Below, one piece after another: positions 7,688 through 63,116 of a stretch of 64,000 nt of DNA. Numbering within the stretch: the stretch's first letter is position 1; each line of letters opens with the position of its first letter. The notes below the pieces were generated by a model. That model was not told where the DNA came from. It saw only the letters and a list, made by a program, of their open reading frames with translations, and searched no databases. The DNA comes from Candidatus Moraniibacteriota bacterium (GTDB lineage: Bacteria; Patescibacteriota; Minisyncoccia; Moranbacterales; GCA-2747515): positions 1,170,912 to 1,234,911 of the forward strand of contig CP175956.1 of the NCBI GenBank assembly GCA_046116545.1, read 5' to 3'. Made by a program: the position numbers and the translations under genes.

Positions 7688-7847
7688 TACACTGTATCAC
7701 ACAAATAAGCTAAAAACAACCTGGAATACCATATCAAAAAAGTCCAACCTAGATTGGACTTTTTTAAAATATCTTCAATTAACTTCTCCTCCTTTTTAAG
7801 GAGGAGACTGAGGGGTGGTTCTATCACATCATTAATTAGAACAGTTT

Positions 7848-26700: not shown

Positions 26701-28213
26701 AAAATCCATCTGCACCTTCGTTATGATCATGCCGAATATCTGTTCCAATACCTGCATCAAAATCAACAGAGTTCTCAAATGATCCAGTCATGAATATATC
26801 TCCCGATGCATTAACAACAATTGAATCAGGGTGATCAAAACCACTTCCACCAAATGTACGTGTCCATCCGTATGAACCATCTGCATTATATTTTGTTAAA
26901 TATGCGTCTGCAAATCCACCATTAGACGTGTGAATATCAACTCCATCAGTAGCATCAAAGTCAACATCATTTGAAAAAGAACCTGTCAAAAAAGTATTAT
27001 CATTACTATCCATAGCCATAAAACTCCCAGAATCCCAACCAACACTACCAAAAGTACTAGCTCTCATAGTTCCCGGTACATAATCCAAAGCTACCATACC
27101 ATTTCCATCACTTACAACCTGCGTATTTGTTAAATCTCCTATGAACTCACTCTCAATATCTTCTTTTTTTGTAACTTTTTCTTGTGAAATCATTTTCAAT
27201 TCAGTAACATTACAATCCTTTCCTTCACTATCAGGGACTGGCGCATAATCCCAAGAAACTCTATTATTATTTGAATATAAAAATGAAGTTGTGTCTGGGT
27301 GTGTACTTTCTTCAGAACCTATTTCATAACACTCACATTCTGAAACTGTTTTTATTATTGTCGTATCCCCTGGTGCCGCAGCTCTATCTGCATTACAACT
27401 TTGAGTTTCACCGTTAGATAGACAATTCCAATGCACTATTTGTTCATAGTCTGGAAAAGCAGGAGCAACATCAACCACTCCAACGTTACAAAAAGTTCCA
27501 TCAAAAGCTGTTTCATTTGCTGTATATGTACGTGCTGCTATTCCACATTGTGGCACAATATCTTCAGCAAGAACCTCTAGCTCATTGATTTGAGGGTCAA
27601 CTGTACTTGTGGTAGTTGTAGTAGTTGTGGTTGTAGTTGTATAATAGTGAAAATTTTGATTTGTATAATAGTTAGTATAACACGTATATGTCCCTGACAT
27701 TGACGTGCACATAAAACCTGTATATGTAGTTGTAGTTATAGATTGATTTTGATTTTGATGTGGATTTTGATGTGGGTTTTGAAAACTACTTCCTCCATCA
27801 TGAAATTCAAACTTGATATACCTACCAGTTGCATCAAAAATGGGTGATTCTTGCCACGAGGCTAATGGATTCGGCTCCCAATTACTAATAACTGGAAATA
27901 TAGGAAAATTATCGGGATCCTCAGAAACAAAAATTTCAACAGTTGAAAGTCCTCCTGAATCATTAATATATAAACGAGCTTGAGTAATAGATTTTGATAT
28001 GCCAAGGTCATATATTGCACTAGCATTGGGAACCTCATGTAAATATTCATTCCCAGTTGATGTATTCTGATCGATTGTCAAATCAGCTGATCCCCAACTA
28101 CCATCAACATCGTATACAGAAACGGGAGTTTGCCATGCTGCACTTGCAGTATGAGTCACCGCCAAAGACACGCTAAAAAGAAAAATTAAACTACTTATTT
28201 TAATTTTATACAT
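23756..28213 (-). CDS. Large (1485 aa) secreted surface protein with eight SBBP-type beta-propeller repeats, a poly-Thr linker, an FN3-like region and C-terminal TM segments with CarboxypepD_reg-like domains
   Basis: Signal peptide; eight repeats of DGTYGWTRTFGG...; TTTTTTTTTTST tract; C-terminal hydrophobic helices. Confidence 0.75.
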   Translation of the reverse strand: MYKIKISSLIFLFSVSLAVTHTASAAWQTPVSVYDVDGSWGSADLTIDQNTSTGNEYLHEVPNASAIYDLGISKSITQARLYINDSGGLSTVEIFVSEDPDNFPIFPVISNWEPNPLASWQESPIFDATGRYIKFEFHDGGSSFQNPHQNPHQNQNQSITTTTYTGFMCTSMSGTYTCYTNYYTNQNFHYYTTTTTTTTTTTSTVDPQINELEVLAEDIVPQCGIAARTYTANETAFDGTFCNVGVVDVAPAFPDYEQIVHWNCLSNGETQSCNADRAAAPGDTTIIKTVSECECYEIGSEESTHPDTTSFLYSNNNRVSWDYAPVPDSEGKDCNVTELKMISQEKVTKKEDIESEFIGDLTNTQVVSDGNGMVALDYVPGTMRASTFGSVGWDSGSFMAMDSNDNTFLTGSFSNDVDFDATDGVDIHTSNGGFADAYLTKYNADGSYGWTRTFGGSGFDHPDSIVVNASGDIFMTGSFENSVDFDAGIGTDIRHDHNEGADGFLTKYNADGTYGWTRVIGLGSADCMMTHCGPDEAGHIGIDASGNVFIVGVFHATVNFDDTGGADMHTVSSGTSDMFLTRYNADGTYGWTRTFGGVQDGSANSLAVDSFGGVFSTGSFTGVFDFDASGSVDNHTSNGSNDVFLTRYNADGTYGWTRTFGATNQDRGFGNVIDINGDILIVGTFSDSVNFDTGGGSDVHVADGTSDVFLTKYATNGTYEWTRTFGAGTGNGVAVDGANNIYVSGYFWEDGNFDGTGGTDEHASNGMEDAFLTRYNADGTYGWTRTFGGVGGDYAIKPWVHGEDVRIIGMFSEMVNFDGTGGSDEHISNGDKDVFFTAYNTDGTYDPLAYSATGEYKTIVSTVGFVKEWNNLNITVDSVANTILETEILDKNCITTLIPSTVDRNIDLSGISTSNIEICLKFTFETTDNQITPKLDKWEIAYTTQPDNTGSDFTYKTKPDPSCDSPVTPPIHPEDPEEEKECKTDNIKEITKDSVTLRVEVDEEYADEKIKFKVEVENLYTNEKETIKLTDKPSDSGRVTLEIDNLEEDTQYRFKVSYQEDDSYEYCPHSKTATTEKTTLGPTKEIVNPECGESSKTYTEDESEFTGDFCQTGEVLNIPEFPNQGESSSWTCTNDDEEITCSASREEKEIVTPPVVQGGSDPEPPAQEVTDPPVQEPTKEQQKEKQYQAAAVVGLTTGTLIALASTTIPLFTTIPMAATDIFIMPFLGILARRKNEQNWGTVFEQTTKQPLPGVKLVLTDIEGFEIETTYSDQHGRFGFLTTNGTYLIHPEKPKYEEDLTHNHDSLYGDVYTGEALTIEENKVLATNIAMNALNINWNEYADKKVKSYTGTFSAIKKWSFIILFYVGFIATAAITYLYPSTLNYIFLSLYMALFIYDNFIKQKKYGTVTKHDKNPVPFAVVSLHNKETNQKTGFAVTDAIGRYYLLAENGDYNMKVKGQPISGQPFEKQGNINVRKGLVREDIKV
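25756..27031. repeat. Coding tandem repeats (SBBP units, about 8 copies) within the 1485-aa gene
   Basis: Recurrent nucleotide motif ccaaatgtacgtgtccatccatatgttccatctgcattatat. Confidence 0.7.
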
Positions 28214-42687: not shown

Positions 42688-45255
42688 CTACTGATAAAAC
42701 CCACTAGCATCAGAGGTAGCAGTATAAGTAACAGAACCAGTATATATTCCTGAAGGTTGTGATGGTGATACATCAACTTTGTAACATACATCAGTTGTTG
42801 ATGAAGTTGAATTATATGCTGTGTGTGCTGCTACTGCTTGAGCTGTTTGTGGTACACCTGCGTATTGGGCATCATCTGATGTTGTTCCTTCTTCGCATAG
42901 GTTTCCTGAGGTTGTCCATACGTTATTAAACGTATTATTTGTTGTATCTGCTTGTGGAAATTGTATTACACTGAATCCTAGACCTTTTGTTGTTGGAGCG
43001 TTCCATGATTCTGTTACTTTTGTTGTTTCATTGAATTGTGTTAGGTCTGGTATTTCATCTGTATTATTTGAATGTACTAGAGTTGTATTTGAAGCTCCAT
43101 TATCATTTATCATTGACAGGTAGTAACCTTGGGTATCATTTGTTGTTACTATACAAGTTGATTGTCCTACTGCTGGAGTTCCTGCTATTACTATTCCTGG
43201 ATTTGCTATTGTTCCTAGTATTACATCGTAATCTCCTGTTACACCATCTTTATCGTAACAATCCATTGATAGGGTTGCATTTACTTCTACATTTAGGTTT
43301 AGGTCATCTATTCCTGATATTGTTCCATCTCCGTTTACAATATAAGTTGTTGCATGGTTTGTTGTGAATGTACATATTCCGTTTGTTACTGTACATGTTG
43401 TATGTAGGACTTCAGTTCCTTGTGCTGCTCCTTCCTCTCTCGAAAGTACATCCAATATCATTCCATTGTAAGCTTCGCTTACAGTTATTTCCATTGTTAT
43501 ATCATTAGTAAAGTCTAATGATATTCCTGGTACACCTATTCTTACTGCTCCTACTGCATTTGGTAGATTTACTTGTTCACTTGTTAATGTATTTTCTGTT
43601 ATGAAGTTTTCAAAGTTAAAGTTTCCATTTAAACTTTCGGTTATTACTGTATTATTTGGAAATATTGCATTTGTTGTATTTGATTGGAATGTTACTTGTA
43701 CTTGGGTTGTTGTTTGGGTTGTGTTATCTATTGTTCCGTTGTCTACTGTTATATATCCATTATCTACTGATTGTTGCATTTCTGAATTATTTGGGTCTGT
43801 GATTATCACTTCTTCTACTACATCATCTACTGATATTATTATTTGTTTTTCGAATTGTTCTTGTAATGATTTGTATATATTTGAATTTATATTCTTTGTT
43901 GCATCGTTATAAAAATTTGTAACAACTAGATAATTTTCCATTCCTATCATAAAGTATTCCCAACTTGTTGCACCACTTGTTGCGATTGATTGAAATTCTA
44001 CAAAAGTTGAACCGTTCCATTTGTAGATTTTTGAGTTTATATTATATGTTGAACCATTATAATTATTTGCAACAACTAAATAATGTTCTGTGTCTATTGT
44101 AAAGTATTCCCAGTCTGATGCACCATTTGTCGCAATAGACTGAAACTCCACAAAAGATGTTCCATTCCATTTGTAGATTTTTGAGTTTATATTTGTTGAG
44201 CCATTGGAATAATTTGCGACTACCAGATAATCATCTACACCTATTGTGAAATGCTTCCAACCCGATGCACCGCTTGTTGCGATTGATTGAAAATCTACAA
44301 AAGATGTTCCATTCCATTTGTAGATTTTTGAGTTTATATTATATGAACCACTATATGAATTTGCAAGTGCCAAATAGTTATCTGTACCAATTGTAAAGTA
44401 TTCCCAACTATTTGCGCCAGTCGTTGCAATTGATTGAAATTCTACAAAAGATGTTCCATTCCATTTGTAGATTTTTGAGTTTATATTTCTCGATGAACCA
44501 TTATAATAATTTGTAACAGCTAGATAATCATCTATACCTATTCTGAAATGTTCCCAATTTCTTGCACCATTTGTTGCAATTGATTGAAGCACTCCAAAAG
44601 ATGTGCCGTTCCATTTGTAGATTTTTGAGCTTATGTTATATGTTGAACCATTATAATAATTTGTAACAGCCAAATAATCATCGGTACCTATCGTAAAGTG
44701 TTCCCAGTCTGATGCACCGCTTGTTGCGATTGATTGAAAATCTACAAAAGATGTTCCATTCCATTTGTAGATTTTTGAGTTTATATTATATGTTGAGTTA
44801 TTATGATAATTTGCAACAACCAGATAATCATCTGTGCCTATTGTGAAATATTCCAAGTCTTGTGCTCCATTCGTTAAAATGCCTTGTTCCAATACAAAAT
44901 CAGAATATGAATCAGTTGTTTTCACTCTTGTTGAATAGTTATTATCGCCAGGAGTACCTCCTAGGTCTTCTGGATTTTCATAATCTGGTGTAAAGTTTAG
45001 ATTTAGATTATCTCCATCTATTGTGAATTTGGAATTATCTTCGTCTCCTATTCCATTTATTAATTCATATGTGTATGGAGAATTTCCTCCTGTTGTAGTT
45101 AAAGTTCCTGAAGTTGTTCCACTTGGTGTATTTTCATCTATACTATCTGAACTTCCTCCATCTATTTGTATATCTGTTATTGCTGCTTGTGTTGTCTGTG
45201 TTAAAAAAAGTATAACAATCAATGTTATTGGGAATAGTAATATATATTTTTTCAT
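42688..45255 (-). CDS. Secreted 855-aa protein: N-terminal cadherin-like domain plus eight EAR/EPTP-like beta-propeller repeats plus a C-terminal region
   Basis: Signal peptide; IDENTPSGTTSGTL...YTYELI...FTIDGDNL cadherin-like pattern; 8 repeats SKIYKWNGTSFVDFQSIATSGASDWEHFTIGTDDYLAVTNYYNGS resembling LGI1/ADGRV1 EPTP repeats (IYKWNG, YLVVAN). Confidence 0.7.
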   Translation of the reverse strand: MKKYILLFPITLIVILFLTQTTQAAITDIQIDGGSSDSIDENTPSGTTSGTLTTTGGNSPYTYELINGIGDEDNSKFTIDGDNLNLNFTPDYENPEDLGGTPGDNNYSTRVKTTDSYSDFVLEQGILTNGAQDLEYFTIGTDDYLVVANYHNNSTYNINSKIYKWNGTSFVDFQSIATSGASDWEHFTIGTDDYLAVTNYYNGSTYNISSKIYKWNGTSFGVLQSIATNGARNWEHFRIGIDDYLAVTNYYNGSSRNINSKIYKWNGTSFVEFQSIATTGANSWEYFTIGTDNYLALANSYSGSYNINSKIYKWNGTSFVDFQSIATSGASGWKHFTIGVDDYLVVANYSNGSTNINSKIYKWNGTSFVEFQSIATNGASDWEYFTIDTEHYLVVANNYNGSTYNINSKIYKWNGSTFVEFQSIATSGATSWEYFMIGMENYLVVTNFYNDATKNINSNIYKSLQEQFEKQIIISVDDVVEEVIITDPNNSEMQQSVDNGYITVDNGTIDNTTQTTTQVQVTFQSNTTNAIFPNNTVITESLNGNFNFENFITENTLTSEQVNLPNAVGAVRIGVPGISLDFTNDITMEITVSEAYNGMILDVLSREEGAAQGTEVLHTTCTVTNGICTFTTNHATTYIVNGDGTISGIDDLNLNVEVNATLSMDCYDKDGVTGDYDVILGTIANPGIVIAGTPAVGQSTCIVTTNDTQGYYLSMINDNGASNTTLVHSNNTDEIPDLTQFNETTKVTESWNAPTTKGLGFSVIQFPQADTTNNTFNNVWTTSGNLCEEGTTSDDAQYAGVPQTAQAVAAHTAYNSTSSTTDVCYKVDVSPSQPSGIYTGSVTYTATSDASGFYQ
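43905..44930. repeat. Coding tandem repeats (about 147-nt period, 8 copies) for the EAR/EPTP-like blades
   Basis: ccatttgtagatttttgagtttatatt recurs at a regular period. Confidence 0.75.
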
Positions 45256-46789: not shown

Positions 46790-47157
46790 ATATTATTGGA
46801 AGACAGTTAATAAGCCGGATTCTGTCAAAAAATAAATTTTGGATGACAATCTATCTTGTTTATATGTTGCCATATAAATCCTTGCGACTCTTTCCAATTA
46901 CTTGGAATACGGTCTTGCACTTCAGTAAGGATTTAGCCGTTTCACTCTCTGTGTTACCACAAAGCATTATCCAAATAAATTTGGATAGTTTTTTACTTGC
47001 GCAAAAAACCGTCACTGCTCGCACCTCGTAGATTACTCTAGACGGGTATTACCCGCTACCGTTTTTTTGGTCATAAAGACCAAACTAGTGTCCGGACTTT
47101 CCTCTCCGAAATAAATTTCAAGAGCTGTCATCAAACGGTCTCCCAATAATATAAATG
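46790..47157 (-). ncRNA. rnpB: RNase P RNA (bacterial)
   Basis: Both conserved P4 strands are present on the minus strand: GAGGAAAGTCCGGAC (reverse complement of 47090-47108) and ACAGAATCCGGCTTAT (reverse complement of 46805-46826); terminal P1 pairing GGGAGAC/GTCTTCC; length about 370 nt. The + strand ORF 46786-47031 is spurious. Confidence 0.8.
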
Positions 47158-47942: not shown

Positions 47943-48701
47943 TTATTCACCTATTTTGAGTGTAATATTGGAAATAGACTTTATTTCACTACCCTTTATT
48001 GAAGCAACTAACGGACCTTGTCCATATAGCCAGGTACCCTCTTCAATTTTCTCATTTTTGCTTACATATGGCTTTTCTTCCATGAAAATTTCCCGTACGA
48101 CATCGGCATTTTGAAATAATTCATCTATCCCAAAATCGATTGCTGACATTGAATATCTGTCATTTGACTGCGCCATGTAATCTCCTGGGGCATGCATACT
48201 AAGACAAATTGATTCAGTTGCAATTACACTCATCGTATCACCATCTTGTGAATCATCGCTGTATTCCCATACAGCAGCTTCTAATTGATAAAACTTATCA
48301 TTCAGTTCTACAATATTATTTGCGAGATAGGTTATCCGATCATTAAAAATATCTTCATTTTCTTTACTAAAATATCTTCCAAGCTCCTTTGAAACTGCAA
48401 TTTGCATAGCTCTCGACATATGTCCTGCATAATCAATATTTGCAAGTTTGTCACTTAAGTCTGCTATTATTTCTTGCCTTACTGCACGTTCACTTTTTGT
48501 AACTAACAATTCTTGTTTTGCAACTAACAGTTCTTTTTGCAACATTTCAATTTGAATAGATTGTTCCAAAACAACATCCGTCTGCATATTATCTACAAAA
48601 TATGCAGACAATGGAAAAAATGTTTCAAACAAAAATGAAACTGGTGTAACCATGGCAATAAACTTTATTGACCAAAACACTAACTCAGTGATGACGCTCA
48701 T
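47943..48701 (-). CDS. Hypothetical membrane-anchored coiled-coil protein
   Basis: N-terminal TM; heptad-like LQKELLVAKQELLVTK segment. Confidence 0.4.
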   Translation of the reverse strand: MSVITELVFWSIKFIAMVTPVSFLFETFFPLSAYFVDNMQTDVVLEQSIQIEMLQKELLVAKQELLVTKSERAVRQEIIADLSDKLANIDYAGHMSRAMQIAVSKELGRYFSKENEDIFNDRITYLANNIVELNDKFYQLEAAVWEYSDDSQDGDTMSVIATESICLSMHAPGDYMAQSNDRYSMSAIDFGIDELFQNADVVREIFMEEKPYVSKNEKIEEGTWLYGQGPLVASIKGSEIKSISNITLKIGE

Positions 48702-49673: not shown

Positions 49674-50333
49674 TTATTTGTCAGGATCTGACATTGAATC
49701 CGAATCTGTTAAGTCCTCATCCTTAGATTCAACAGAAGAGACTTCATTAATCGGCTCAGACTGTTCACGTTTCGGCTCATCGACAACATCAGAGCTATCG
49801 TCATCTTCTGACTCCAACACTTCCTCATCAGCTTCTTGAAGACCATCGTCTTCTTTCTCATGATCAGACTTATCAGCAGAATGCCCCACACTAACACCAG
49901 CAGCAACCGCTGCTACTTCCGGAGATACCGAGCCTGACTTCTCCTTTTCAACTTCTGTAGAAGCATCATCTTTTTTCTTATGGTCAGACTTATCATTAGC
50001 ATGAGCAGCAGCAATACCTCCCTCAGGTTTTACTCTTGACTTAGGATTGCTTTTCTTCGCCAACTGCATTTTTTTCACAACGAAATAGAAAACTCCAAAC
50101 ATAATACCAAGCACTATGGCATCGCCATACCAAGCAGCGGGAAGACATAAGATGGCCCCCGCAGCCATAATTGGCCAACCAAAAAACATTACCTTAATAT
50201 CACTTAAGTAATCTGGGCCAACTTTGTCATTCAAAAATTTTTGTCCCCTTGGATGCCTTTTTGCAACCTCAGCAATAATACCTATGATTATACAAACAAT
50301 ACCCACTAAATTCTCTTGCCAAAATAAAGTCAT
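49674..50333 (-). CDS. Membrane protein (3 TM) with a long acidic, internally duplicated C-terminal tail
   Basis: Hydrophobic N-terminal half; the tail repeats AAHANDKSDHKKKDDAS and VGHSADKSDHEKEDDGL; D/E/S-rich. Confidence 0.45.
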   Translation of the reverse strand: MTLFWQENLVGIVCIIIGIIAEVAKRHPRGQKFLNDKVGPDYLSDIKVMFFGWPIMAAGAILCLPAAWYGDAIVLGIMFGVFYFVVKKMQLAKKSNPKSRVKPEGGIAAAHANDKSDHKKKDDASTEVEKEKSGSVSPEVAAVAAGVSVGHSADKSDHEKEDDGLQEADEEVLESEDDDSSDVVDEPKREQSEPINEVSSVESKDEDLTDSDSMSDPDK

Positions 50334-50446: not shown

Positions 50447-50488
50447 TAAAAATAAAAATTGCTTCGTAGAATTTATCTACGAAGCAAT
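50447..50488 (-). terminator. Intrinsic terminator of the 50512-51711 gene, with a second weaker hairpin at about 50423-50449
   Basis: 13-bp perfect stem attgcttcgtaga/tctacgaagcaat with a 5-nt loop; T-run on the minus strand. Confidence 0.55.
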
Positions 50489-50511
50489 TATACTTCCCTA
50501 CAGACTTACGA

Positions 50512-51711
50512 CTATGTCGTAACTTCTGCAGTTATTTCTTCACTCTTTTCTTCTTCATCTCCCTTAAGAATGTCGATATCCTTCTTGAACGCTATAATTA
50601 GAGATACTAAGAAAGCTACCAGAAATGGTCCCACCAACGCACCCTTGAGACCGTATGCATTCATCCCTGCAATCATGCAAAGCATCAATGCAACAGCTGA
50701 TAATGTTGCTTCCTCGCCACCTAAGACTTTGAACTTGATCCAGTTATCACATGTTGCAACAAGAACTGTTGCAACAAGTAAAACACCTGTTGCTATATAA
50801 TGACCTTGCACTGCACTAATAACAACTAACCCGATTACTACTGGGGTTGCTACAAGCGGAAGTCCACAAGCAGATGTCGCAATAGCCAGTATGGCAATAA
50901 CCAAAAGCACAGCTATGTCTACAGGCATATACATAAAACAATATATCCCCACAATAAGCGTAGCCAAACCTCCCTGTCCCAAGCCAACTGCTACCATACT
51001 TTTTACAAGACTATTCATAACCTTCTGGACATCCAGGAGGATTTGTCTCGTATCCTCTTTTCCAAAAAAGGCGATATGCGGAAGCAGCCACTCTATCATC
51101 TTTTTACCTCTCAAAAGAAAAATAATTACGGCTACTACAGTTATGCTTATATCAACAAAGATCTTCCACACTTTTGCTAAAGTACCTGTAACTGCTCCGA
51201 GAACTGATTTACTTAATTTGCCAATCATACCACCACCCTGAAGTAGGACAGTGACACTGCCAAAATTTGAATCAGCTATCTCTATAGCCTTGTCCACAAA
51301 CATTGTTGACCATTCATGTTTTTTCTTTACTTTTACAAGCAAGTCCACAGCCTCTTCCTGAAATTCCGTAACCATAGTACTTCCATCCTTCACAGCCTCA
51401 ATTCCAGTATCAATCTTGTTGATACCATATACCCCAAAGCCCACCATCACAATAAAACACATGCCAATAAATGACATTATCATTATTGCTATAGCCGTCT
51501 TTGCTCTTCCTCCCAAAAACTCACTGAGAGGCTGATATACCGTTGGATACAACGCCGATGCTAATACTGCACCAATAAAAAATTGTGATACAAATGGTGT
51601 TATCATGGGCATAGTCACCCACATCATAAAAGCAACAAAAACTGCCCCTGCTACTTTCATTACTACTACCTTGTCTTTGGCTGTGTACCTGATATTTGGT
51701 CGTGTTTTCAC
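50512..51711 (-). CDS. Polytopic membrane protein, possibly AI-2E family transporter-like
   Basis: 399 aa, about 8-9 TM with a soluble loop after TM3; C-terminal GLKGALVGPFLVAFLV region resembles the AI-2E end motif; the assignment is weak. Confidence 0.4.
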   Translation of the reverse strand: MKTRPNIRYTAKDKVVVMKVAGAVFVAFMMWVTMPMITPFVSQFFIGAVLASALYPTVYQPLSEFLGGRAKTAIAIMIMSFIGMCFIVMVGFGVYGINKIDTGIEAVKDGSTMVTEFQEEAVDLLVKVKKKHEWSTMFVDKAIEIADSNFGSVTVLLQGGGMIGKLSKSVLGAVTGTLAKVWKIFVDISITVVAVIIFLLRGKKMIEWLLPHIAFFGKEDTRQILLDVQKVMNSLVKSMVAVGLGQGGLATLIVGIYCFMYMPVDIAVLLVIAILAIATSACGLPLVATPVVIGLVVISAVQGHYIATGVLLVATVLVATCDNWIKFKVLGGEEATLSAVALMLCMIAGMNAYGLKGALVGPFLVAFLVSLIIAFKKDIDILKGDEEEKSEEITAEVTT

Positions 51712-51824: not shown

Positions 51825-53000
51825 CTATACTGCATGTTCTTGAGATATTTTATCCCATTTGATCATGCCCTCCTTAAATCGTTTTGATCGAAGATACTCA
51901 ATGAACATTCCCGCTTCAATACAACGTGATTTTGGTGGATTAACTTCAAGCTTGCCACCAGCTTTGTGACCTGCTGCAATTGCATCTGCTTTATTATTTC
52001 CTGACTTGAAAAATCTCTTCAAATCATCCCAACTACATCCGTCGAAATCCTCCGGAACTTGCAAACGATATTTTGTTTGTCCATCAGCATCTATCATATC
52101 CATCATGGTATACGATGATCCTGGATCCTGTATGCACCTAGCAATTAGCTCAGGCATACTAGTTGGAACAGGCTCGATGTTTTCCCCAAGAAGTTTAACA
52201 ACAGGAGCATTTTCATGCATTACGTCAAACGCAACTACAATATGAGCCTTTGGATTTACATTTCTCATAATGATACATAATGCGATGTTATAATTATCAT
52301 CACCTGTATCAATCAAAATTCTAGCAGCATCTGCGATACGTGCCTCTTTGAGAAATTTGTCAGACTTAAATCCTGTCTTGGTGCTTTTGCCACTGACAAT
52401 TCCACTCATTGGGTTTTTGTCATACCTCTCCTTATCAAAGCATAACAATAATTGTCGTTTTTCTCTACGAGTGTCGGCCAAAATATTATCAATGATAATA
52501 TTTGTTCTATTTCGTTGAAACGAAATAATTGGTATATGATCTTTTATACTCACAATGATATCTCCATGATATATTTTGTACGAAATTTTCCAAAAATCTT
52601 TAACCAACATTGCACCATAAGCAACTAAAAAGGCCGGGTAAAAATTGAATGAAAATGCAGAAACTAGCCTACCCATTTCTGACACAGGAGCCACATCTCC
52701 AAGTCCAACTGTTGAACTCAAAGCACTGACAAAATATAAATAATTTATCCAATTAGTTATATCGTTGTCAACAGGCTCAAATGAAATAAATATTCCCCAA
52801 TTAAAAAGAAAATATGACACCCAAATTATGACGGGCCACTTTGACTTAAATAGCTCTTTTTCTATTTCTAGAAAAATAAACGCTGCAGTAGCCGACTGTG
52901 ACTCCAGTCTCCCATATACAAACCCACGTACTTTTTTTGCAATACTTAGCAAATTAGCACGTATACCTGATAATATATTTTTTGACTTATTCACATTCAA
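51825..53000 (-). CDS. Two-TM potassium-channel-like protein with a noncanonical TVGLGD pore motif and a C-terminal cytoplasmic domain
   Basis: TM1, then pore helix plus STVGLGDVAP, then TM2 (KcsA-like layout); the C-terminal ~250 aa are not clearly RCK (no GxGxxG). Confidence 0.5.
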   Translation of the reverse strand: MNVNKSKNILSGIRANLLSIAKKVRGFVYGRLESQSATAAFIFLEIEKELFKSKWPVIIWVSYFLFNWGIFISFEPVDNDITNWINYLYFVSALSSTVGLGDVAPVSEMGRLVSAFSFNFYPAFLVAYGAMLVKDFWKISYKIYHGDIIVSIKDHIPIISFQRNRTNIIIDNILADTRREKRQLLLCFDKERYDKNPMSGIVSGKSTKTGFKSDKFLKEARIADAARILIDTGDDNYNIALCIIMRNVNPKAHIVVAFDVMHENAPVVKLLGENIEPVPTSMPELIARCIQDPGSSYTMMDMIDADGQTKYRLQVPEDFDGCSWDDLKRFFKSGNNKADAIAAGHKAGGKLEVNPPKSRCIEAGMFIEYLRSKRFKEGMIKWDKISQEHAV

Positions 53001-53169
53001 TCCCCCTCCTTTTCATCACAGTTTTCTGATATATTTTGTTAAAAAAACTAAAATCTAACACAATTTACACATTATAAATTGACTCATCAGATTAGCATAA
53101 ATTACAAAAGAAATCAAGTATAGTATCTTACATCCCACCTTCAACCTTAATCACAAATAAATATAAAAG

Positions 53170-53246
53170 CCTGTCATTCCGGAAGATATTATTTGTATCA
53201 GAGCGGTTAGCGATGATAACCAAATAAATCTGTCCGGAATCTATAC
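53170..53246. repeat. Intergenic palindromic repeat, long form
   Basis: cctgtcattccggaag...tctgtccggaatctatac; same termini as 48827-48906. Confidence 0.55.
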
Positions 53247-53410
53247 TGTGACATTAAAGGTCAGCTTTCGTACAAGTGATTTTTTGATGGATGGACAGGC
53301 ACAAGGCACTGTCCCTACTAAAAATCTATTTTACGAAATGACAGAAATTCAATATTTTTGTTGATTGAAATTTGAATTAGAATTCAGGAGTAAATGATAC
53401 TATCCCTACA

Positions 53411-53452
53411 AAAAATAAAAAGCTGCAGAAACATTATATAATGTTTCTGCAG
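53411..53452 (-). terminator. Intrinsic terminator of the 53461-54447 gene
   Basis: 13-bp perfect stem ctgcagaaacatt/aatgtttctgcag with a 4-nt loop; A-run upstream on +, so a T-run on the minus strand. Confidence 0.6.
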
Positions 53453-53460
53453 TTAACTAC

Positions 53461-54447
53461 TTATTGTTCTTTTTTTGGGAGATCTAGCCTAGACTCCTCA
53501 TCAGGTTCCCAGTCTAGTTCAAAAGCATCATCAATTTCTTCTTCCTCAACTTCAAAACCAATTTCGCCTTCATCAATATCCAACAATGAAAGTTCCCGAT
53601 CATCATCAAGTTCCGAATCTCCTCCATCTTCTATATCAAATATTCCTAAATCCAAATCATCCTCTTCATCATCAAGAAAAGTAGATGATACAGACTCATC
53701 CTCAATTTCATCTTCTTGTGTATCTGTCATTACTGGTTCAGTATCCAATATTGATATAGTGCCTATCTCTGAATTCATTGCGGTTAGTTTGTCAGATAAT
53801 TCACCCAATTCTGCTGTAACAACCTGCTGTAACATGTTGATTAAACCACTGAAATGATCTACTAAATGATCATTATTTTCACCTACCTGTTGTAATAAAT
53901 TGGCAACAATAGTATCAATAGCCAGCTCTCCAGTTTGAGTGCCACTATGCTTATAAAACTTTTGCAATGATGCGTCCATGGCAGTGCTCAATCGTGTAAC
54001 CTCTCTTCCTTCGACATCACGCATTTCAGTGAGTTCTTCACGTAATTCATCACCCTCTTTACGCAATGCTACAATCATTTGTTGTGCCTCTGCCTCACCT
54101 TCCTGCAATCGTTTACGTTCTTTTTCAACTAACTCAAGAGTCTTTTTCACACCTCCCAACTCACTAACACGCTCATAGAGAGCATCAGCCTTGTCTTCTT
54201 CCTTCACTAATCGCTTATTAAATTGAAATGCAAGTCTACTAAACCCTGCTACCATGAAAGCCAGTGCTACAATACAAATTGTAGCCCCAGCATTCATGCC
54301 CATCCATGCTAACAACTCGCTTGATGAATCTGCAATATTTGTAGTTAAATAACTCCAAGATACTTGTGCTGACTCTCGTAAAGTTTCAATCATTTTTCCC
54401 ATCTCCAAGTTATAATTTTGTATTGTAAAACAACAATTAATTTGCAA
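53461..54447 (-). CDS. Single-pass membrane protein with a coiled-coil domain and a highly acidic C-terminal tail
   Basis: TM (ATICIVALAFMVAGF), a long Glu/Lys-rich helical region, and a C-terminal DDEEDDLDLGIFDIEDGGDSELDDD tail; the real start is probably an internal Met. Confidence 0.45.
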   Translation of the reverse strand: MQINCCFTIQNYNLEMGKMIETLRESAQVSWSYLTTNIADSSSELLAWMGMNAGATICIVALAFMVAGFSRLAFQFNKRLVKEEDKADALYERVSELGGVKKTLELVEKERKRLQEGEAEAQQMIVALRKEGDELREELTEMRDVEGREVTRLSTAMDASLQKFYKHSGTQTGELAIDTIVANLLQQVGENNDHLVDHFSGLINMLQQVVTAELGELSDKLTAMNSEIGTISILDTEPVMTDTQEDEIEDESVSSTFLDDEEDDLDLGIFDIEDGGDSELDDDRELSLLDIDEGEIGFEVEEEEIDDAFELDWEPDEESRLDLPKKEQ

Positions 54448-54499
54448 TCAAATAAATTTGATATATAACTATATCACTGATACTACATTTGGTCAATTA

Positions 54500-54542
54500 T
54501 AAATAAAAAGCTGCTACGATATTTTGTAATATCGTAGCAGCT
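54500..54542 (-). terminator. Intrinsic terminator of the 54563-55783 gene
   Basis: 14-bp perfect stem agctgctacgatat/atatcgtagcagct with a 6-nt loop; T-run on the minus strand. Confidence 0.6.
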
Positions 54543-54562
54543 ATACTGTACCTCACACGCAA

Positions 54563-55783
54563 TTATTTATTGCGCTGTGCTTTTTCAAAATCTCCAACAG
54601 TTTGTAAATCATCTTCATCAATAGAATCCTCTGTCATATCCACTTCAGAAAGATACACAAATGTATTCAACTTTTTAAGCATGAGCGCAGCCATCTCCAA
54701 TAAGTCAATTGGATCTGTAGAGTCATTGATATCTACAACTGGCTTTGTTGATACCATTTTTGGAATTAACTCAAGTCCTTCAACACTCTTTTCAAGTTGC
54801 TTCATCAACGCCTGTCGATCACCTGCAAGCAATCTTGTGATCAGATCCTCATCAACTGATTTATTCACAATAATTACTTTTTTCTTAATAGTGTCAAGTT
54901 GGTTACTGGATTCTGCATTCAATTCTGCAACAGTCCATGTGTGAATGCCTGAACGTTCACTCTGTATAGCAGTGAGACGCTTATCTATATCAACTTGATA
55001 TTGCTTGATAGCTTTTTCAACAAGCTTATCAAGATCAACTTCCGGTGCACTCTTAGCATCCTCAAGCTTCTTCACCAGACCGTCAGTAAGAGTTTCCAGT
55101 GACTTATTAATTGAATCACTTCCGTCTCCAAGTTGTTTCTTTACAAAATCATGCAATTCCTGCATCGGAACTTTCATCTCTGCGGCCACATTTTCAGCCA
55201 GCGCTTTACCATTATCATCAGGACCGATAGTAATCACTGCACCAATGACTTCAGCCATTTCTTTGAGATTAGTCAGGACCTCTTTGTTAAAAATTGGCAC
55301 AGAAATTGGATTTTCATCAACTCCTGATGATTGTTTCAATTCACCCACAGGACTTACCTCAAGTTCCTTGAAAAAATCAACCCCATAAAACTCACGCAAG
55401 GCTTCTAAATTACTCAACTTACGTCGACCAATTTTATCAGCTATTTCTTGCTCAAGCTTTTGCTTGTCTTGTGTCAGCTTTTTAACATCATTCTCTGACT
55501 TCTTGATGATTTTATCTAACACCTTTATTTGATCTTGACTTGCTAAGTCATATTTTTTCAATCGCGCAATTTTTTTCAATCGCTTTTTAGTGGCACGTTT
55601 CTGTGCCCAAATCACCGCACACAGTACGATAAATAGAATCCCAACTCCTCCAATTGCAATAGCAAACGGAGAATTTGTCAAAAATTCTTCCCCAAAATTT
55701 GTCATTACATTCTTAACAGACTCAATAATTTCGCCTACTTCAACTCTAATGTTGCCATCAGTTACACTTATCACACTTGCCAT
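54563..55783 (-). CDS. Single-pass membrane protein with coiled-coil domains and an acidic C-terminus (paralogous architecture to 53461-54447)
   Basis: TM (FAIAIGGVGILFIVLCAVIW), then KRATKKRLKK, then coiled-coil segments, then a C-terminal EDSIDEDD. Confidence 0.45.
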   Translation of the reverse strand: MASVISVTDGNIRVEVGEIIESVKNVMTNFGEEFLTNSPFAIAIGGVGILFIVLCAVIWAQKRATKKRLKKIARLKKYDLASQDQIKVLDKIIKKSENDVKKLTQDKQKLEQEIADKIGRRKLSNLEALREFYGVDFFKELEVSPVGELKQSSGVDENPISVPIFNKEVLTNLKEMAEVIGAVITIGPDDNGKALAENVAAEMKVPMQELHDFVKKQLGDGSDSINKSLETLTDGLVKKLEDAKSAPEVDLDKLVEKAIKQYQVDIDKRLTAIQSERSGIHTWTVAELNAESSNQLDTIKKKVIIVNKSVDEDLITRLLAGDRQALMKQLEKSVEGLELIPKMVSTKPVVDINDSTDPIDLLEMAALMLKKLNTFVYLSEVDMTEDSIDEDDLQTVGDFEKAQRNK

Positions 55784-55868: not shown

Positions 55869-55967
55869 CTACTCCAATTTAAAAATCCAACGCACAAAAA
55901 TACTAAATGATATAACTGCCACAACAATTGCACCCAAAAGTGCACTTGCATGTATCCAATTATCCAT
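55869..55967 (-). CDS. Unannotated 32-aa hydrophobic mini-protein (MDNWIHASALLGAIVVAVISFSIFVRWIFKLE)
   Basis: Manual translation; one TM; its start overlaps the stop of the 55960-56223 ORF by 8 nt. Confidence 0.25.
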   Translation of the reverse strand: MDNWIHASALLGAIVVAVISFSIFVRWIFKLE

Positions 55968-56223
55968 AACCTATCACCCTCCCAAATCTAAATGTGGTAC
56001 TACAGCCTCGCTTCCTTTGTAACCATAAAAAATATACAAAAACAAATAAAGCAATACACAATATCAACATAGCTCGAATAGATTCCATCACAAGGGCTGC
56101 TGTTCGATATACAGTAATACTGATTAATCTAAATGGCATCACAAGAAATATTATCCAAATAAGTTTAGACATATCACTCACCTTCTTGAAATTATTTTTC
56201 AAATTTTCTGTCTTTAGGCACAA
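55960..56223 (-). CDS. Small two-TM membrane protein (possibly starting at the internal Met, about 56175)
   Basis: 87-aa ORF; two hydrophobic helices; its 5' end overlaps the 46-aa mini-ORF. Confidence 0.35.
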   Translation of the reverse strand: MCLKTENLKNNFKKVSDMSKLIWIIFLVMPFRLISITVYRTAALVMESIRAMLILCIALFVFVYFLWLQRKRGCSTTFRFGRVIGYG

Positions 56224-56332
56224 AAATAATACAAGCTATAAAACTTGTAACAATCACTGATACAATAATAATCGTCTCAATGTTATTTGCAATAACTGGT
56301 ACTGACTGCAATAAATCCTGAATCATTATCAT
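56192..56332 (-). CDS. Unannotated 46-aa single-TM mini-protein (MIMIQDLLQSVPVIANNIETIIIVSVIVTSFIACIIFVPKDRKFEK)
   Basis: Manual translation of the minus strand; ATG at 56332; TAA stop at 56194-56192. Confidence 0.25.
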   Translation of the reverse strand: MIMIQDLLQSVPVIANNIETIIIVSVIVTSFIACIIFVPKDRKFEK

Positions 56333-56490
56333 GCTATTTTCTCCTCAATATTCAATTATTAAATTACATCTGAAAAATATACCTATACTTTTCACAATTA
56401 TATTTACAAAAAATAAATACTGTTGTAAAAACTATTGTGCTTTGAGTATTGATATCAATACTCAAAGCACGCTCCTTTAAATTGTTGAAT

Positions 56491-58263
56491 TTATAATGTC
56501 ACAACCTGATCTTCATCCATAGGCTCTGCCTTTTGGATAGTTGCCCATGGCATTTTGGATATTGCTGTCATAATGTTTCTCTGAGCATACATTCCCATGC
56601 CCATGCCTACATGTACAGCTGATCCCAAGACCTTGCCAGATGCATTGATGACGCTTTGACCTGTTGCCTGCAATGCCTGCAACTTTCCACCATCAATACT
56701 AATTTGACGTAAGCGTCTAGCCTCTTTTCTACTATCTTTATTGATAAGCATTACGAGACGATTATTGCCGATTACAAATCGACCTATCTTCCACTTACGA
56801 AACATGTACATACGATGTTTCCCACCTAGTGACATCTTGCCAAAAAATGTTTTTGCTAATATTACAGAAATGAATTCAAAGACTTTGTTCACACCAAGTT
56901 TTCTCAAACCTGCTCCAAACAATCCCATCACAGTCCTGAAACCAGCAAAAATTTTAATGAGAACGCCCTTTGGAAAAAGTGGATAAATAAAATCAGCAGA
57001 ACCACCCATCAACCAAATTGCTGTCATGCCAATAATGCACCAAAACATCTGTCTGGGAAATGATAATGATTTATAATGAGTCACTGCTCTATCTTTGTAT
57101 TTACCAAAGAATAACTTCGCCCACATAACTTTTTCATTTTTTAACGCTCTTGCTTTCTTATTCGCAAAAAATTGCGTAATAGCAAGTGCAATGCCTAACT
57201 TAATAGCACCTCTTGCGCTCACCTTTTGTGCTGCAAAGACTCCAAAATTTTTGGCCTGTGCCCATGAAAGAGTAGTTATCAAAGTAATGCCACGTCCCCA
57301 CCACAGTTTTGTAAAACTGATGATGTAACCTGTGTACAAAATTGCTTTACTCTTTATGAAAATAAGCACTTTTAATATGATACTTCTCCAAACAATGGTT
57401 ACAGCAGCAAAAAAGTGTACATCCCACACCAATTGGCAAATGAGAATAATTATACTGAGTATGATACATAACCATATTACAGGACAAATCTGTCTTTTAA
57501 CCTTTACAGTAAGCCTGCTCCATATACGCCACATTATCGTAGTTCCCATAATTGCAGCAACTTCGATAACAAACATAGCTTTGGAGATGGTCAATCTATA
57601 ACACACCCACTTCACTGCAAATGTAACAACTCCTACTTCCCCACAAAAAAATAAAATATTGCGAGCTTTCTGAGTCATTGATTCAAATACAGCATTCAAA
57701 TTATGCAATATACATAATATTGGCAATGTAATTGTCACCAAAATACCAAACGGTACAATTGATTTGCATACCAGCTTATGTACATTCACAACAGTGGCCA
57801 TAAAAATATCCTGTGCCAATTTCTGACTGAAATTCACAATGGAATGCCACAAAATTATTGCATCTTGCAGAGACCTTACATCACCCTTGTTATGTAACAA
57901 GGCCAAGGCAAATGCCCAAACAGGCACCCATCTCAATAAAACACGAATTGACTCTTTTTTTTCATCTGACAATCTCGGCCATATAAATGACCATGTGGAC
58001 CACGTCAATACTAACGTAAACCAGATTGTAGCAAATACAACGATACTACCGTGTTGCCAATGTGACCCTCCAAAGATTGCTATTGCCATCTGCAATATAA
58101 CTGCATACTCCAAGAAAAAAATAAATACACTTTTCACACGTGAATGTACTACTTGTTGCAATAAATTTCCTTGATGCAATAACATACATGGTCTCATCAA
58201 TAGCACGATAGCAAAGATGGACCACAGGTCATGCCTTGTAATACCAAGCGCTGTAATATCCAT
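56491..58263 (-). CDS. Large (590 aa) polytopic membrane protein, Trp/Lys/Cys-rich, unknown family
   Basis: At least 10 hydrophobic segments; no transporter-like G/A-rich motifs; first gene of a tightly packed four-gene minus-strand operon. Confidence 0.5.
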   Translation of the reverse strand: MDITALGITRHDLWSIFAIVLLMRPCMLLHQGNLLQQVVHSRVKSVFIFFLEYAVILQMAIAIFGGSHWQHGSIVVFATIWFTLVLTWSTWSFIWPRLSDEKKESIRVLLRWVPVWAFALALLHNKGDVRSLQDAIILWHSIVNFSQKLAQDIFMATVVNVHKLVCKSIVPFGILVTITLPILCILHNLNAVFESMTQKARNILFFCGEVGVVTFAVKWVCYRLTISKAMFVIEVAAIMGTTIMWRIWSRLTVKVKRQICPVIWLCIILSIIILICQLVWDVHFFAAVTIVWRSIILKVLIFIKSKAILYTGYIISFTKLWWGRGITLITTLSWAQAKNFGVFAAQKVSARGAIKLGIALAITQFFANKKARALKNEKVMWAKLFFGKYKDRAVTHYKSLSFPRQMFWCIIGMTAIWLMGGSADFIYPLFPKGVLIKIFAGFRTVMGLFGAGLRKLGVNKVFEFISVILAKTFFGKMSLGGKHRMYMFRKWKIGRFVIGNNRLVMLINKDSRKEARRLRQISIDGGKLQALQATGQSVINASGKVLGSAVHVGMGMGMYAQRNIMTAISKMPWATIQKAEPMDEDQVVTL

Positions 58264-58278
58264 CTAAATTGCCTCCAA

Positions 58279-58569
58279 TTACTTTTTCATTTCAATCACA
58301 CGATTACTGTACGGCGCATCTGATTTATTTTTTTCGATTATTGCCTGATTAAGCAATATCGCAATAATAATTACCCATGCCAAAATGCCAAGGATAAAAT
58401 TACGCGTCGCTCTAACAGCACATTCACGAATAAACTTAATTGGTTTCTCTTTGATTTCCTCAATCGTGTACATAGACATCTCCTCAAAAAAAGAAAAGTG
58501 ACCACCACGACGATATCGTAGTGGCCACAAGAATATTTCATCTGTCACATTAATTATTATCCACTTCAT
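58279..58569 (-). CDS. Small single-TM protein
   Basis: 96 aa; 20-nt overlap with the upstream gene. Confidence 0.35.
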   Translation of the reverse strand: MKWIIINVTDEIFLWPLRYRRGGHFSFFEEMSMYTIEEIKEKPIKFIRECAVRATRNFILGILAWVIIIAILLNQAIIEKNKSDAPYSNRVIEMKK

Positions 58570-59074
58570 CAGTAGACATTTGTCCAGATAATCTTCTAAT
58601 CAAGATTCCCGTAGCCATCCCAACAGCAAACAGAATCGAAATGATAAATGTAGTATACCATTGCGCCTCACTTGCCTTTGTTAAATCAAGGTAACCATGA
58701 TCAATTAAGAACCACGTGGCCAAACCTGAAATGCCAAACATTGCAATAAGCCCAACTGTACCAAGTGCTTTCTTTGCCAGAAAGGCAAAAATTCCCCACA
58801 CAATAACAGCAGCTCCCACAGCAAGTGCTTTGGAACTCATAGCTGCATCAGATGTTTGTACCCATTTATATAAGCAGTACTGTGTGGGATTATATGTAGC
58901 CCACACAACAACCAAAGCATAAACCAACCTGGTATATAGAACTTCTACAAAATTTTGATTCTTGAATGATTTGAAAAAACTCGTAAATGCGAATTTCAAC
59001 ATTCCCTTTCCAGCAGCCTTTCCATGTTTAGTCGCAACAGCTTTTGCATTTTCCATCTTTTGCCTTACCTCCAT
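58550..59074 (-). CDS. Four-TM membrane protein, unknown family
   Basis: 174 aa; contiguous with the 59075-59371 gene. Confidence 0.45.
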   Translation of the reverse strand: MEVRQKMENAKAVATKHGKAAGKGMLKFAFTSFFKSFKNQNFVEVLYTRLVYALVVVWATYNPTQYCLYKWVQTSDAAMSSKALAVGAAVIVWGIFAFLAKKALGTVGLIAMFGISGLATWFLIDHGYLDLTKASEAQWYTTFIISILFAVGMATGILIRRLSGQMSTDEVDNN

Positions 59075-61870: not shown

Positions 61871-62170
61871 CTATGCTATAAATATATCCTGAACAATTCC
61901 TTCTTTTTCTTCAAAATCAACACCCCGCGTATTAAGTGCCTCAATCATCTTATCACCAAATTTACCTGCGATAATTTTATCAACTGACTTATCTGCTAGC
62001 ATTTTAGCAACTCCCAATCCTGCACCTCCCCCTCCTGTGCTAAATGGATTTTTTATTGTTTCAAGTAAAGTTCCATTTTCATCAAAAATTAAAAAGAATG
62101 GTGCACGTCCTGCTTGTGAAGATACTGTGGAATCTATATTTTTATCCATTGATCCAACTGCAATTTTCAT
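61871..62170 (-). CDS. NifB/NifX-family (dinitrogenase FeMo-cofactor-binding-like, MTH1175-like) small protein
   Basis: 99 aa; MKIAV.S...LD..V....GRAP.F.IFD.......E..KN pattern and a central GGGAG loop. Confidence 0.55.
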   Translation of the reverse strand: MKIAVGSMDKNIDSTVSSQAGRAPFFLIFDENGTLLETIKNPFSTGGGGAGLGVAKMLADKSVDKIIAGKFGDKMIEALNTRGVDFEEKEGIVQDIFIA

Positions 62171-62694
62171 ACTTTATTCGCCTCCTCTCCTTTTTTCAAT
62201 ATTTGCCTTACAACAATGCCATTAATAACTGAAAATATAATAATATATATACTTAATACTACTGTAAAAGCAAGTCCAAAATAATAAATCATCATTGGCA
62301 AAAGTGGTAATTTAATAGACCTACTATAAAGAAATGCTGCTAAAAAAGAATCTTTCACTCCTTTTTCTTTCAAATCTGAAAGAAGTGGAAACCACATATA
62401 AATCGGACCAGATGATATAATACCACTTACAATTGCGATAACCCAACCACGTATTTTTTTACTATGGCCTAAATGCGTAACTAACATATCTGTTGTTACA
62501 AATATATTAAATATAAACATCAAACCAAAAACAATAATTACTGTTGGCATAATTTGCTTAAATGTTTGCCAAAAAAATGTAAGTGATTCCTGAAATAGCA
62601 TCATATCTACAAAAGCAAGTCCACCATAAAGGCAAGCTACAAAAATAAGTAGCCACCACTTTCCCTCCACATTGTGTATTAATGCACGAATCAT
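62167..62694 (-). CDS. Membrane permease subunit (second half of a split DUF318/ArsP-like permease), tentative
   Basis: 175 aa, about 5 TM; 4-nt overlaps with both neighbouring genes. Confidence 0.35.
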   Translation of the reverse strand: MIRALIHNVEGKWWLLIFVACLYGGLAFVDMMLFQESLTFFWQTFKQIMPTVIIVFGLMFIFNIFVTTDMLVTHLGHSKKIRGWVIAIVSGIISSGPIYMWFPLLSDLKEKGVKDSFLAAFLYSRSIKLPLLPMMIYYFGLAFTVVLSIYIIIFSVINGIVVRQILKKGEEANKV

Positions 62695-63116
62695 AGTAAA
62701 TTAAGAGTAATAACAGTTAAAAAAGAAATAATAATTGCACTCACAAAACTAGCAATATTACGTGTCCAAGTGAATCTCTTACCCATCATGACAATCTCAG
62801 CTGGAATCTGCACCGTACCCACTGTAACCCAAGTCAAAATAAACGCTGTAACAGCAATCAAACTTACACCATTATTCAAAAGCTCACCACCTATAACATA
62901 ACTAGTCATGGGATTACCCGCAGCAATACTTCCCACAGCAGCTCCCAAAAATGCATCAACAACCTTATTTCCAATAAAAAACTGCGTATACATATCATCA
63001 GGCACCACAGTAATTATAAAACTAGTCAACAACAAAATACCAACCAAAGTCGGAAACGACATCTTAATTGCACCAAATGTTTGCTTTGCAGCTTTTTTAA
63101 CTCTCACTTTTTTCAT
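62691..63116 (-). CDS. Membrane permease subunit (first half of a split DUF318/ArsP-like permease), tentative
   Basis: 141 aa, about 4 TM; VGSIAAGNPMTSYVIGGELLNNG resembles the DUF318 loop but without the Cys residues. Confidence 0.35.
   Translation of the reverse strand: MKKVRVKKAAKQTFGAIKMSFPTLVGILLLTSFIITVVPDDMYTQFFIGNKVVDAFLGAAVGSIAAGNPMTSYVIGGELLNNGVSLIAVTAFILTWVTVGTVQIPAEIVMMGKRFTWTRNIASFVSAIIISFLTVITLNLL

Follow-up and report, generated by a model that had tools for sequence, protein, structure and literature searches.

We report two adjacent genes, here called A and B, on the minus strand of a 64,000-nucleotide stretch of DNA (the window) from a Candidatus Moraniibacteriota bacterium (GenBank assembly GCA_046116545.1, contig CP175956.1, positions 1,170,912 to 1,234,911). 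Both genes are real, and B, judged from its sequence, is a two-module protein of a very rare family of which three lineages were found. What is new here is this rare family, together with its conserved position: its neighbours are a polybasic, so far uncharacterised membrane protein and an RCK K+ channel. The explanation that we propose for the pair, which we hold as possible but at somewhat less than even confidence, is that A and B may be unrelated bitopic, membrane-tethered adaptors of the cytoplasm, with B serving as an accessory of a rare membrane module. The architecture of the two proteins (bitopic, helical or coiled-coil) is in itself generic and such orphans are very common in the genomes of the Candidate Phyla Radiation (CPR); the pair represents a modest, testable lead and has no bearing on any long-standing open question.

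A first-pass annotation, made from the letters of the window alone, had described adjacent open reading frames (ORFs) of 328 and 406 amino acids (aa). The length of B stands, but A is shortened to 310 aa; the longer version begins at a TTG at 54447, which has no ribosome-binding site (RBS) and lies about 14 nt past a promoter-like site, and we regard it as an over-extension. The two ORFs do not merge on re-examination, the start of A being the only thing to change. At the local base composition, the chance of ORFs as long as A and B is about 1e-12 and 2e-16, and across five contigs of the same species there is one base difference in 3.2 kb. No hidden paralogue of A or B was found elsewhere in the window.

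B begins with an acidic segment (residues 1-38), which is followed by a TM (transmembrane) helix (39-60) and, at 61-78, by a juxtamembrane stretch that is polybasic (net +9 per 20 aa). A zipper-like coiled coil comes next (about residues 80-135; a zipper of some 40-50 aa) and, after a Pro/Gly linker, an all-helical C-terminal module (143-404; a helical domain of about 240 aa) that carries the conserved motif TIGPDDNGKALAENV. The AF2 model of B, a low-confidence model from the single sequence, is all-helical. An exhaustive HMMER scan of 1.84e9 cluster representatives returned two relatives, P0004 and P0003. P0004 (397 aa) is a full-length homologue (phmmer E = 1.3e-5; pairwise BLASTP E = 8e-16 over 266 aa), and P0003 (178 aa) is the N-module alone, which aligns to residues 32-163 of B at 35% identity (E = 5.7e-10) and is without most of B's C-module. 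The N-module, as found in all three proteins, consists of an acidic N-tail, the TM helix, the polybasic stretch, the zipper and the motif K-L-S-x-L-x-x-L-x-E-F-x-G-x-D. The C-module shared by B and P0004 includes TIGP(D/E)D(N/D)G-x-ALA-x-N and, at its C-terminal end, a conserved block with (D/E)F-x-x-x-QR as its last motif. A profile re-search for B added only P0004, and the B-family alignment gave no match in viral contigs.

The locus of P0004 (L006) is a 16.5-kb metagenome contig with a GC content of 39.8%, against 33.2% here. The window and L006 have a gene order in common, which runs from a membrane protein of 590 aa (567 aa in L006) through B and a variable slot, occupied by A in the window, to an RCK K+ channel and an AI-2E transporter (Table 1). 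The outer flanks differ, with genes for a PP2C phosphatase and a Ser/Thr kinase in L006 and, in the window, for an ArsP-like permease, a Nitro_FeMo-Co protein and a HAD hydrolase. B or its homologue lies between the gene of the 590-aa family and the RCK K+ channel gene in the window and in L006/L007; P0003, on contigs of only 2.4 kb, does not, and two genomes are informative. The punctuation of L006 can also be compared with that of the window, with perfect terminator stems of 14 bp after the 567-aa gene and of 12 bp after the B homologue, and with a TTGACC-17-TACTAT site that precedes the slot gene, like the promoter-like site of A. Net charge is +47 and +31 in the 590-aa family and -12 and -19 in the B family (window and L006, respectively), a charge complementarity that is kept in both genomes.

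The 590-aa protein, which NCBI calls at 564 aa (ACKUBY_05915), belongs to a family in which basic patches (residues 369-398 and 490-519 among them) are conserved and which is without a Pfam, NCBIfam, PADLOC or PDB match. Searches with the alignment of this family found nothing in GTDB genomes, and metagenomes gave L010 alone, from the organism of L006; the channel alignment likewise found nothing in GTDB genomes. As a new membrane protein family, the 590-aa protein is arguably more interesting than either A or B. The selectivity filter of the channel reads TVGLGD in the window, with GLG and not the canonical GYG, and TVGYGD in the L006 orthologue.

A opens with an acidic N-terminal segment (residues 1-32) and a TM helix (about 33-55; KD19 = 2.0), continues as a charged heptad-rich helix (59-137) and a helical segment (157-219), and closes with a polyacidic disordered tail (214-300) and a short basic end, LPKKEQ. 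The AF2 secondary structure, taken from a low-confidence single-sequence model, has helices at 2-31, 36-150 and 153-213 and leaves 214-298 unstructured. The net charge of the tail, -39 per 80 aa, was matched by 0 of 2000 shuffles, and its hydrophobic residues are grouped in about five small islands (FL, LGIF, LSLL, IGF and AFELDW). With a net charge of -53 and a pI of 4.05, A is the most acidic protein of the window. No DNA tandem repeat lies beneath the tail. A halophile-type, global acidity of the proteome was rejected as the cause of the acidity of A, the pI values in the window being mixed, and an antisense, Ser-rich ORF of 138 aa opposite the tail (53441..53857, plus strand) was set aside as a by-product of the GAT/GAA-rich (GAx codon) strand and not a gene.

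The one architecture that the first-pass annotation had seen in both proteins is superficial: A and B are unrelated, and a significant acidic tail and long heptad-rich segments are found in A only. A against B gives BLASTP E = 2.8, and A against the B-family profile gives an hhalign probability of 1.7%, with the alignment over generic coiled coil only; together these rule out paralogy. The acidity of the B tail, where the segment EDSIDEDD had been pointed out, is -9 per 30 aa, a value reached by 588 of 2000 shuffles of B itself and equalled by several unrelated proteins of the window. In P0004 this segment belongs to the conserved block that ends in the basic (D/E)F-x-x-x-QR, and it is therefore not a free tail. 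The heptad-like windows of 28 residues number 50 in A, against 6 +/- 7 in shuffles and a maximum of 42 in 200 shuffles, and cover residues 59-137 and 157-219. Those of B number 24 against 8.6 +/- 8.9 and are local, falling mainly in residues 81-120, and the generic coiled-coil PDB matches of B fall on residues 67-129. A coiled coil in A and B is likely, though it is not a canonical one.

One TM helix per protein, as had been annotated, agrees with the single strong hydrophobic segment present in each. The 15 residues before this helix contain no Lys or Arg in A, B, P0004 or P0003, and the 15 residues that follow it contain 7 in B, 6-7 across B, P0004 and P0003, and 4 in A. In all four proteins the N-tail is acidic, is only 10-50 aa long and lacks a basic n-region of the kind seen in signal peptides. 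The positive-inside rule, applied to this charge asymmetry across the helix, predicts that A and B are oriented N-out/C-in, with their helical bodies and the acidic tail of A in the cytoplasm. The short cytoplasmic N-terminus proposed in the annotation is thus probably reversed, and the periplasmic spacer (TolA-like or MotB-like) that it had considered is disfavoured, since the same rule would place the helical parts and the acidic tail in the cytoplasm. CPR bacteria are, moreover, generally held to have no outer membrane, which would leave no periplasm for a spacer to cross. The membrane-tethered scaffold, which had been suggested alongside, remains, as a generic reading, the most reasonable one.

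A, B and their neighbours were compared with Pfam, PHROGs, NCBIfam, PADLOC and the PDB, the PDB sequences being queried with the individual proteins as well as with the B-family profile. For A and B these libraries gave no significant match and no clear hit to a known family, which upholds the earlier remark that the pair has no similarity to TolA, MotB or divisome families; only sub-threshold coiled-coil and TM noise was returned (ATP-synt_B, Spc7, Rz-like spanin, ZorA, JetC, SYNZIP2, Abraxas, HALZ and ZapB). In a word-seeded search of 5.8e9 proteins A and B each retrieved themselves alone, and A has no relative in that search, in phage records or in the examined loci, which makes it, on these searches, an orphan confined to its species. 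Foldseek comparison of the AF2 models with the PDB gave E > 0.5 and TM-scores < 0.2, and matches would be meaningless anyway at such model confidence.

In the adaptor explanation that we propose, the polybasic juxtamembrane stretch of B would lie on the inner leaflet, facing the lipid, and B would most likely dimerise through the zipper next to it. The helical module of about 240 aa could then engage the proteins encoded next to B, in the role of an adaptor or regulatory subunit. The architecture of A and B is well supported and their topology is a prediction; the partnerships and the ion link are suggested by the neighbourhood, in which the basic 590-aa polytopic protein, the RCK-type K+ channel and the AI-2E transporter would form a module co-conserved with B; the prime candidate partner would be the polybasic 590-aa protein and the second the RCK ring of the K+ channel. 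A would fill the slot that holds different genes in different lineages, and could be pictured as a helical stalk with a polyanionic disordered arm of 87 residues. This tail is most likely a tethered multivalent electrostatic binding arm, a role to which its format of acid runs and hydrophobic islands would be suited, and its target may be a basic partner, for which the 590-aa neighbour is the obvious candidate, or cations at the inner face of the membrane. A more specific proposal, which we consider improbable as it stands, is that the 590-aa protein, B, the channel and the AI-2E transporter constitute an undescribed, very rare ion-handling module. B would be its zipper-dimerised cytoplasmic regulatory subunit and A a species-specific add-on; the membrane-tethered, polyanionic tail of A would serve the RCK ring or the polybasic partner in trans, by binding cations or by modulating gating. 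If the neighbourhood link is true, B would represent a new type of accessory subunit for prokaryotic RCK K+ channels, associated with an uncharacterised polybasic membrane protein, and would offer a small, concrete entry into the large unknown membrane proteome of the CPR. A would exemplify a natural membrane-tethered polyanionic disordered arm.

Several points weigh against the adaptor explanation. The synteny comes from only two genomes, and shared ancestry rather than selection could explain it. The neighbours of P0003 are DUF5320, DUF134 and IF-2 genes, on contigs of only 2.4 kb, and there is no channel nearby, so the N-module of B is not tied to a channel. Every gene has its own terminator and the cluster is therefore not a single operon. 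The slot gene of L006 encodes an unrelated, basic, Cys-rich protein of 122 aa, which means that an acidic tail is not required in the cluster. The a/d heptad occupancy in a single register is just 0.5-0.67, so the coiled coils may not be canonical. The AF2 models were built from single sequences, have pLDDT values of 39 and 53 and give secondary structure only. Finally, the rarity of A derives from the word-seeded search, the exhaustive HMMER scan having covered B.

The alternative that survives best starts from the first of these points. The synteny would reflect ancestry without any functional link, A and B would be fast-evolving and lineage-restricted, and A would be young or near-neutral, its tail having no specific partner. 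We consider this unlikely, though it has to be taken seriously: A has no relative in the searches that were run, B has two among 1.84e9 representatives, the synteny is supported by two genomes only, and the region from 47.9 to 61.8 kb is rich in separately terminated, family-less membrane ORFs, which include the TM-plus-acidic and TM-plus-heptad proteins of 219 and 252 aa. Against this, the four-gene order has been kept at 25-33% protein identity while the outer flanks differ, and the terminator positions have been kept too. A near-neutral origin of A sits badly with a 310-codon ORF that has a good RBS, a promoter-like site and a terminator, and so ordered a layout, from TM helix through heptad helix to clustered tail, would be unlikely for a neutral ORF.

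The annotation was right that each gene has a hairpin terminator of its own, with a perfect stem of 13-15 bp and a T-run, but its suggestion that dedicated terminators indicate high expression does not hold. Terminators of the same kind, with long stems, stand behind most of the genes in the region from 47.9 to 61.8 kb (at 47930, 49659, 50489, 53452, 54542, 56470, 60791 and 61836); they are a regional habit that does not single out the A/B pair, and terminators are uninformative on the level of expression. Two proteins of a similar style to A and B, of 219 and 252 aa, are encoded nearby (Table 1), so that the theme of TM helix, further helix and acidic segment recurs in the region. L006 also encodes a membrane protein of 188 aa (7326..7892) with an acidic tail at its end (EGLDEIDGDEAIDDGDE).

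Table 1. Features of the window, listed by position, and their counterparts at the locus of P0004 (L006).
Feature	Position	Strand	Description	Counterpart in L006
Giant acidic ORF	9567..18872	-	3101 aa; net -221	
Giant acidic ORF	23756..28213	-	1485 aa; net -122; CarboxypepD_reg and SBBP beta-propeller repeats	
EPTP-repeat protein	42688..45255	-	855 aa; seven EPTP (epitempin) repeats (Pfam E = 1.3e-96)	
RNase P RNA, bacterial class A	46795..47143	-	Rfam RF00010, 109 bits, E = 1.6e-32	
Neighbour of similar style	47943..48701	-	252 aa; N-terminal TM helix, heptad-rich segment	
Neighbour of similar style	49674..50333	-	219 aa; 3 TM helices, long acidic Ser/Asp/Glu tail (net -16 per 30 aa)	
AI-2E transporter	50512..51711	-	399 aa; Pfam PF01594 E = 1.4e-16; terminator 50489..50457	N-terminal fragment; 25% identity, E = 4e-4
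Ion_trans_2 + TrkA_N K+ channel	51825..53000	-	391 aa; Ion_trans_2 pore and TrkA_N/RCK (Pfam); PDB pore matches Lmo2059, KcsA, BK	393 aa; 31% identity, E = 4e-58
Terminator of A	53423..53452	-	Perfect 13-bp stem, 4-nt loop, T-run; -18.1 kcal/mol, z -6.47	
Gene A (variable slot)	53461..54393	-	310 aa; ATG at 54393, GGAG 9 nt upstream; NCBI ACKUBY_05900 also 310 aa	122 aa, Cys-rich, basic; unrelated
A polyacidic tail	53494..53754	-	aa 214-300; 42 D/E, 1 K/R, 25 hydrophobic residues	
Promoter-like site for A	54468..54496	-	TTGACC, 17-nt spacer, TGnTATAGT (extended -10); consensus match only	
Terminator of B	54509..54542	-	Perfect 15-bp stem, 4-nt loop, T-run; -22.8 kcal/mol, z -7.65	
Gene B	54563..55783	-	406 aa; ATG start, RBS GGAGAGG 8 nt upstream	397 aa; 26% identity, E = 8e-16
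B helical C-terminal module	54572..55357	-	aa 143-404; common to P0004	
B N-module part	55379..55603	-	aa 61-135: polybasic stretch, zipper, KLSxLxxLxEFxGxD motif; common to P0003	
B TM helix	55604..55669	-	aa 39-60; KD19 = 2.89	
Small ORFs upstream of B	55960..56172 (70 aa), 56192..56332 (46 aa)	-	Single- or double-TM; gene calls on L001 mapped onto the window	
590-aa membrane protein	56491..58263	-	Polytopic, pI 10.4, net +47, Trp-rich; terminator 56470..56437	567 aa; 33% identity, E = 5e-106
Called 96-aa ORF	58279..58569	-	Overlaps strong terminator hairpin 58528..58498, downstream of DUF6524 gene (58550..59074)	
ArsP-like permease and Nitro_FeMo-Co protein	61871..63116	-	Permease in two overlapping ORFs (141 + 175 aa), then 99-aa PF02579 protein	

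The 70-aa and 46-aa ORFs occupy the space that separates gene B from the terminator of the 590-aa gene and are missing from L006. No minus-strand promoter-like site scoring >=9/12 was found between them and B, with which they may be co-transcribed. The gap between the terminator of A and the start of the K+ channel gene (53001..53422, about 420 nt) is unusually long and non-coding; neither an Rfam match nor a remnant of the 122-aa slot gene of L006 was found in it, and no riboswitch or RNA leader was found near the channel or the A/B pair. The 96-aa ORF that overlaps a terminator hairpin probably has its true start at a downstream Met, or is not real.

Elsewhere in the window, which has a GC content of 33% and nearly all of its genes on the minus strand, the gene content is that of an ordinary cellular region (UvrB, MurJ, glycosyltransferases, a CysH-like PAPS reductase, a sulfatase and RNase P RNA), and no tRNA genes were found. 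The RNase P RNA gene is flanked by a sugar-transferase gene and by an SdrD_B-domain gene. The EPTP repeat is best known from the animal LGI and VLGR1 proteins and is unusual in a CPR bacterium. The ORFs of 3101 and 1485 aa are probably cell-surface proteins. PF02579 proteins often co-occur with DUF134 and DUF5320 genes, and these two families also adjoin the short B-like protein P0003, in L008 and L009. A literature search on DUF6524, on Moranbacteria/Moraniibacteriota and on Patescibacteria with potassium channels found nothing relevant.

Of the known systems with which the pair can be compared, EzrA and ZipA have, as is predicted for A and B, a short outside N-terminus, a single TM helix and, in the cytoplasm, a long body that is helical or charged, a topology that suggests a membrane-adaptor role. 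A and B could on this ground be cytoskeletal or division tethers of the EzrA/ZipA type, with cytoplasmic parts and tail motifs that recruit FtsZ or FtsA, though we think this improbable. The shared topology is joined by weak ZapB and YabA-type coiled-coil matches of P0004 and by the hydrophobic motifs within the acid runs of the A tail, which are a common docking-peptide format. Neither EzrA nor ZipA, however, is among the Pfam matches at E <= 0.1, no division or cell-wall genes adjoin the pair, the neighbours being transport proteins, and a family of this type with about three lineages is far too rare for a core division function. The spectrin-like repeats of EzrA and the globular, FtsZ-binding end of ZipA could not be shown in A or B.

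The extracytoplasmic spacers or scaffolds of the first-pass annotation (TolA-, MotB- or FtsB/L-like), in which the N-terminus would be inside and the coiled coil and tail outside, are very unlikely. TolA, whose domain II is a helical spacer, resembles A and B in that one N-terminal TM helix is followed by a long charged helical region, and cations or an S-layer are conceivable extracellular ligands of a polyacidic tail. The positive-inside rule opposes this arrangement, with an asymmetry conserved in all three members of the B family, as do the acidic N-tails described above; TolA has the opposite topology to that predicted here and the host is presumed to have a single membrane. No TolA, MotB, OmpA or DivIC/FtsB model is among the Pfam or NCBIfam matches at E <= 0.1 for A or B, and no tolQ/tolR, exbBD or motA genes are among the window ORFs scanned. 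MotB/OmpA-like stators, which have an OmpA-like peptidoglycan-binding domain at the C-terminus, a plug and a conserved Asp in the TM helix, differ further, in that the TM helices of A and B are without Asp and their C-terminal parts are all-helical in the AF2 models. FtsB, FtsL and DivIC are N-in bitopic proteins of just 100-130 aa or so, have their leucine zipper outside the cytoplasm, and contrast with A and B in size (310 and 406 aa) and in predicted topology.

An origin in a mobile element, whether the pair were a spanin- or holin-like lysis cassette or belonged to an anti-phage defence system, such as a Zorya ZorA-like tail, is scarcely credible: the weak matches of B (Rz-like spanin PHROG, E = 0.022; NCBIfam LysB, E = 0.085, 13 bits against a cut-off of 92.75 bits; PADLOC ZorA1, E = 2e-4) and of A (JetC, ZorA2) are all far under the family cut-offs and fall on coiled-coil or TM segments, the ZorA match is a local one of 17.9 bits on residues 168-246 of B alone, absent from P0004, and sets a protein with a single TM helix against one that has a multi-TM, MotA/ExbB-type domain, a long tail and ZorB/C/D neighbours, no match came from tblastn of A and B with 50,697 phage records or from the B profile in viral contigs, and no integrase, endolysin or defence genes are among the scanned ORFs.

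The b and b' subunits of ATP synthase (PF00430) have, like A and B, an N-terminal TM anchor and a long cytoplasmic helix, which is dimeric in the synthase, and their genes can be in tandem. A has a weak PF00430 match on residues 101-141 (E = 0.01; 16.3 bits against a cut-off of 28 bits). A and B are, however, 2-3 times longer, A has the polyacidic tail and B the 240-aa C-terminal module, and no atp genes are among the scanned ORFs, so that an identity as subunit b/b' was rejected. PilN and PilO of the type IV pili, which are common in CPR bacteria, are likewise encoded in tandem and have one TM helix and a coiled-coil segment each, but they are N-in, their coiled coil is extracellular and their core is of the alpha/beta type, whereas A and B are predicted to be N-out and all-helical; with no family match, and with pilM, pilB and pilC not among the neighbours scanned, this candidate too was rejected.

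A last group of systems in the comparison is that of the auxiliary subunits of RCK-type K+ channels and transporters (the KtrA/TrkA rings, KefF/G and KhtS/T), with the poly-Asp, Ca2+-binding 'calcium bowl' of the BK gating rings. A and B have no sequence relation to any of these, none of which is a bitopic coiled-coil protein, and the analogy is one of gene neighbourhood: the dense acidic cluster of A, encoded near an RCK channel gene, is loosely like the calcium bowl, and B adjoins an RCK K+ channel in two distant genomes.

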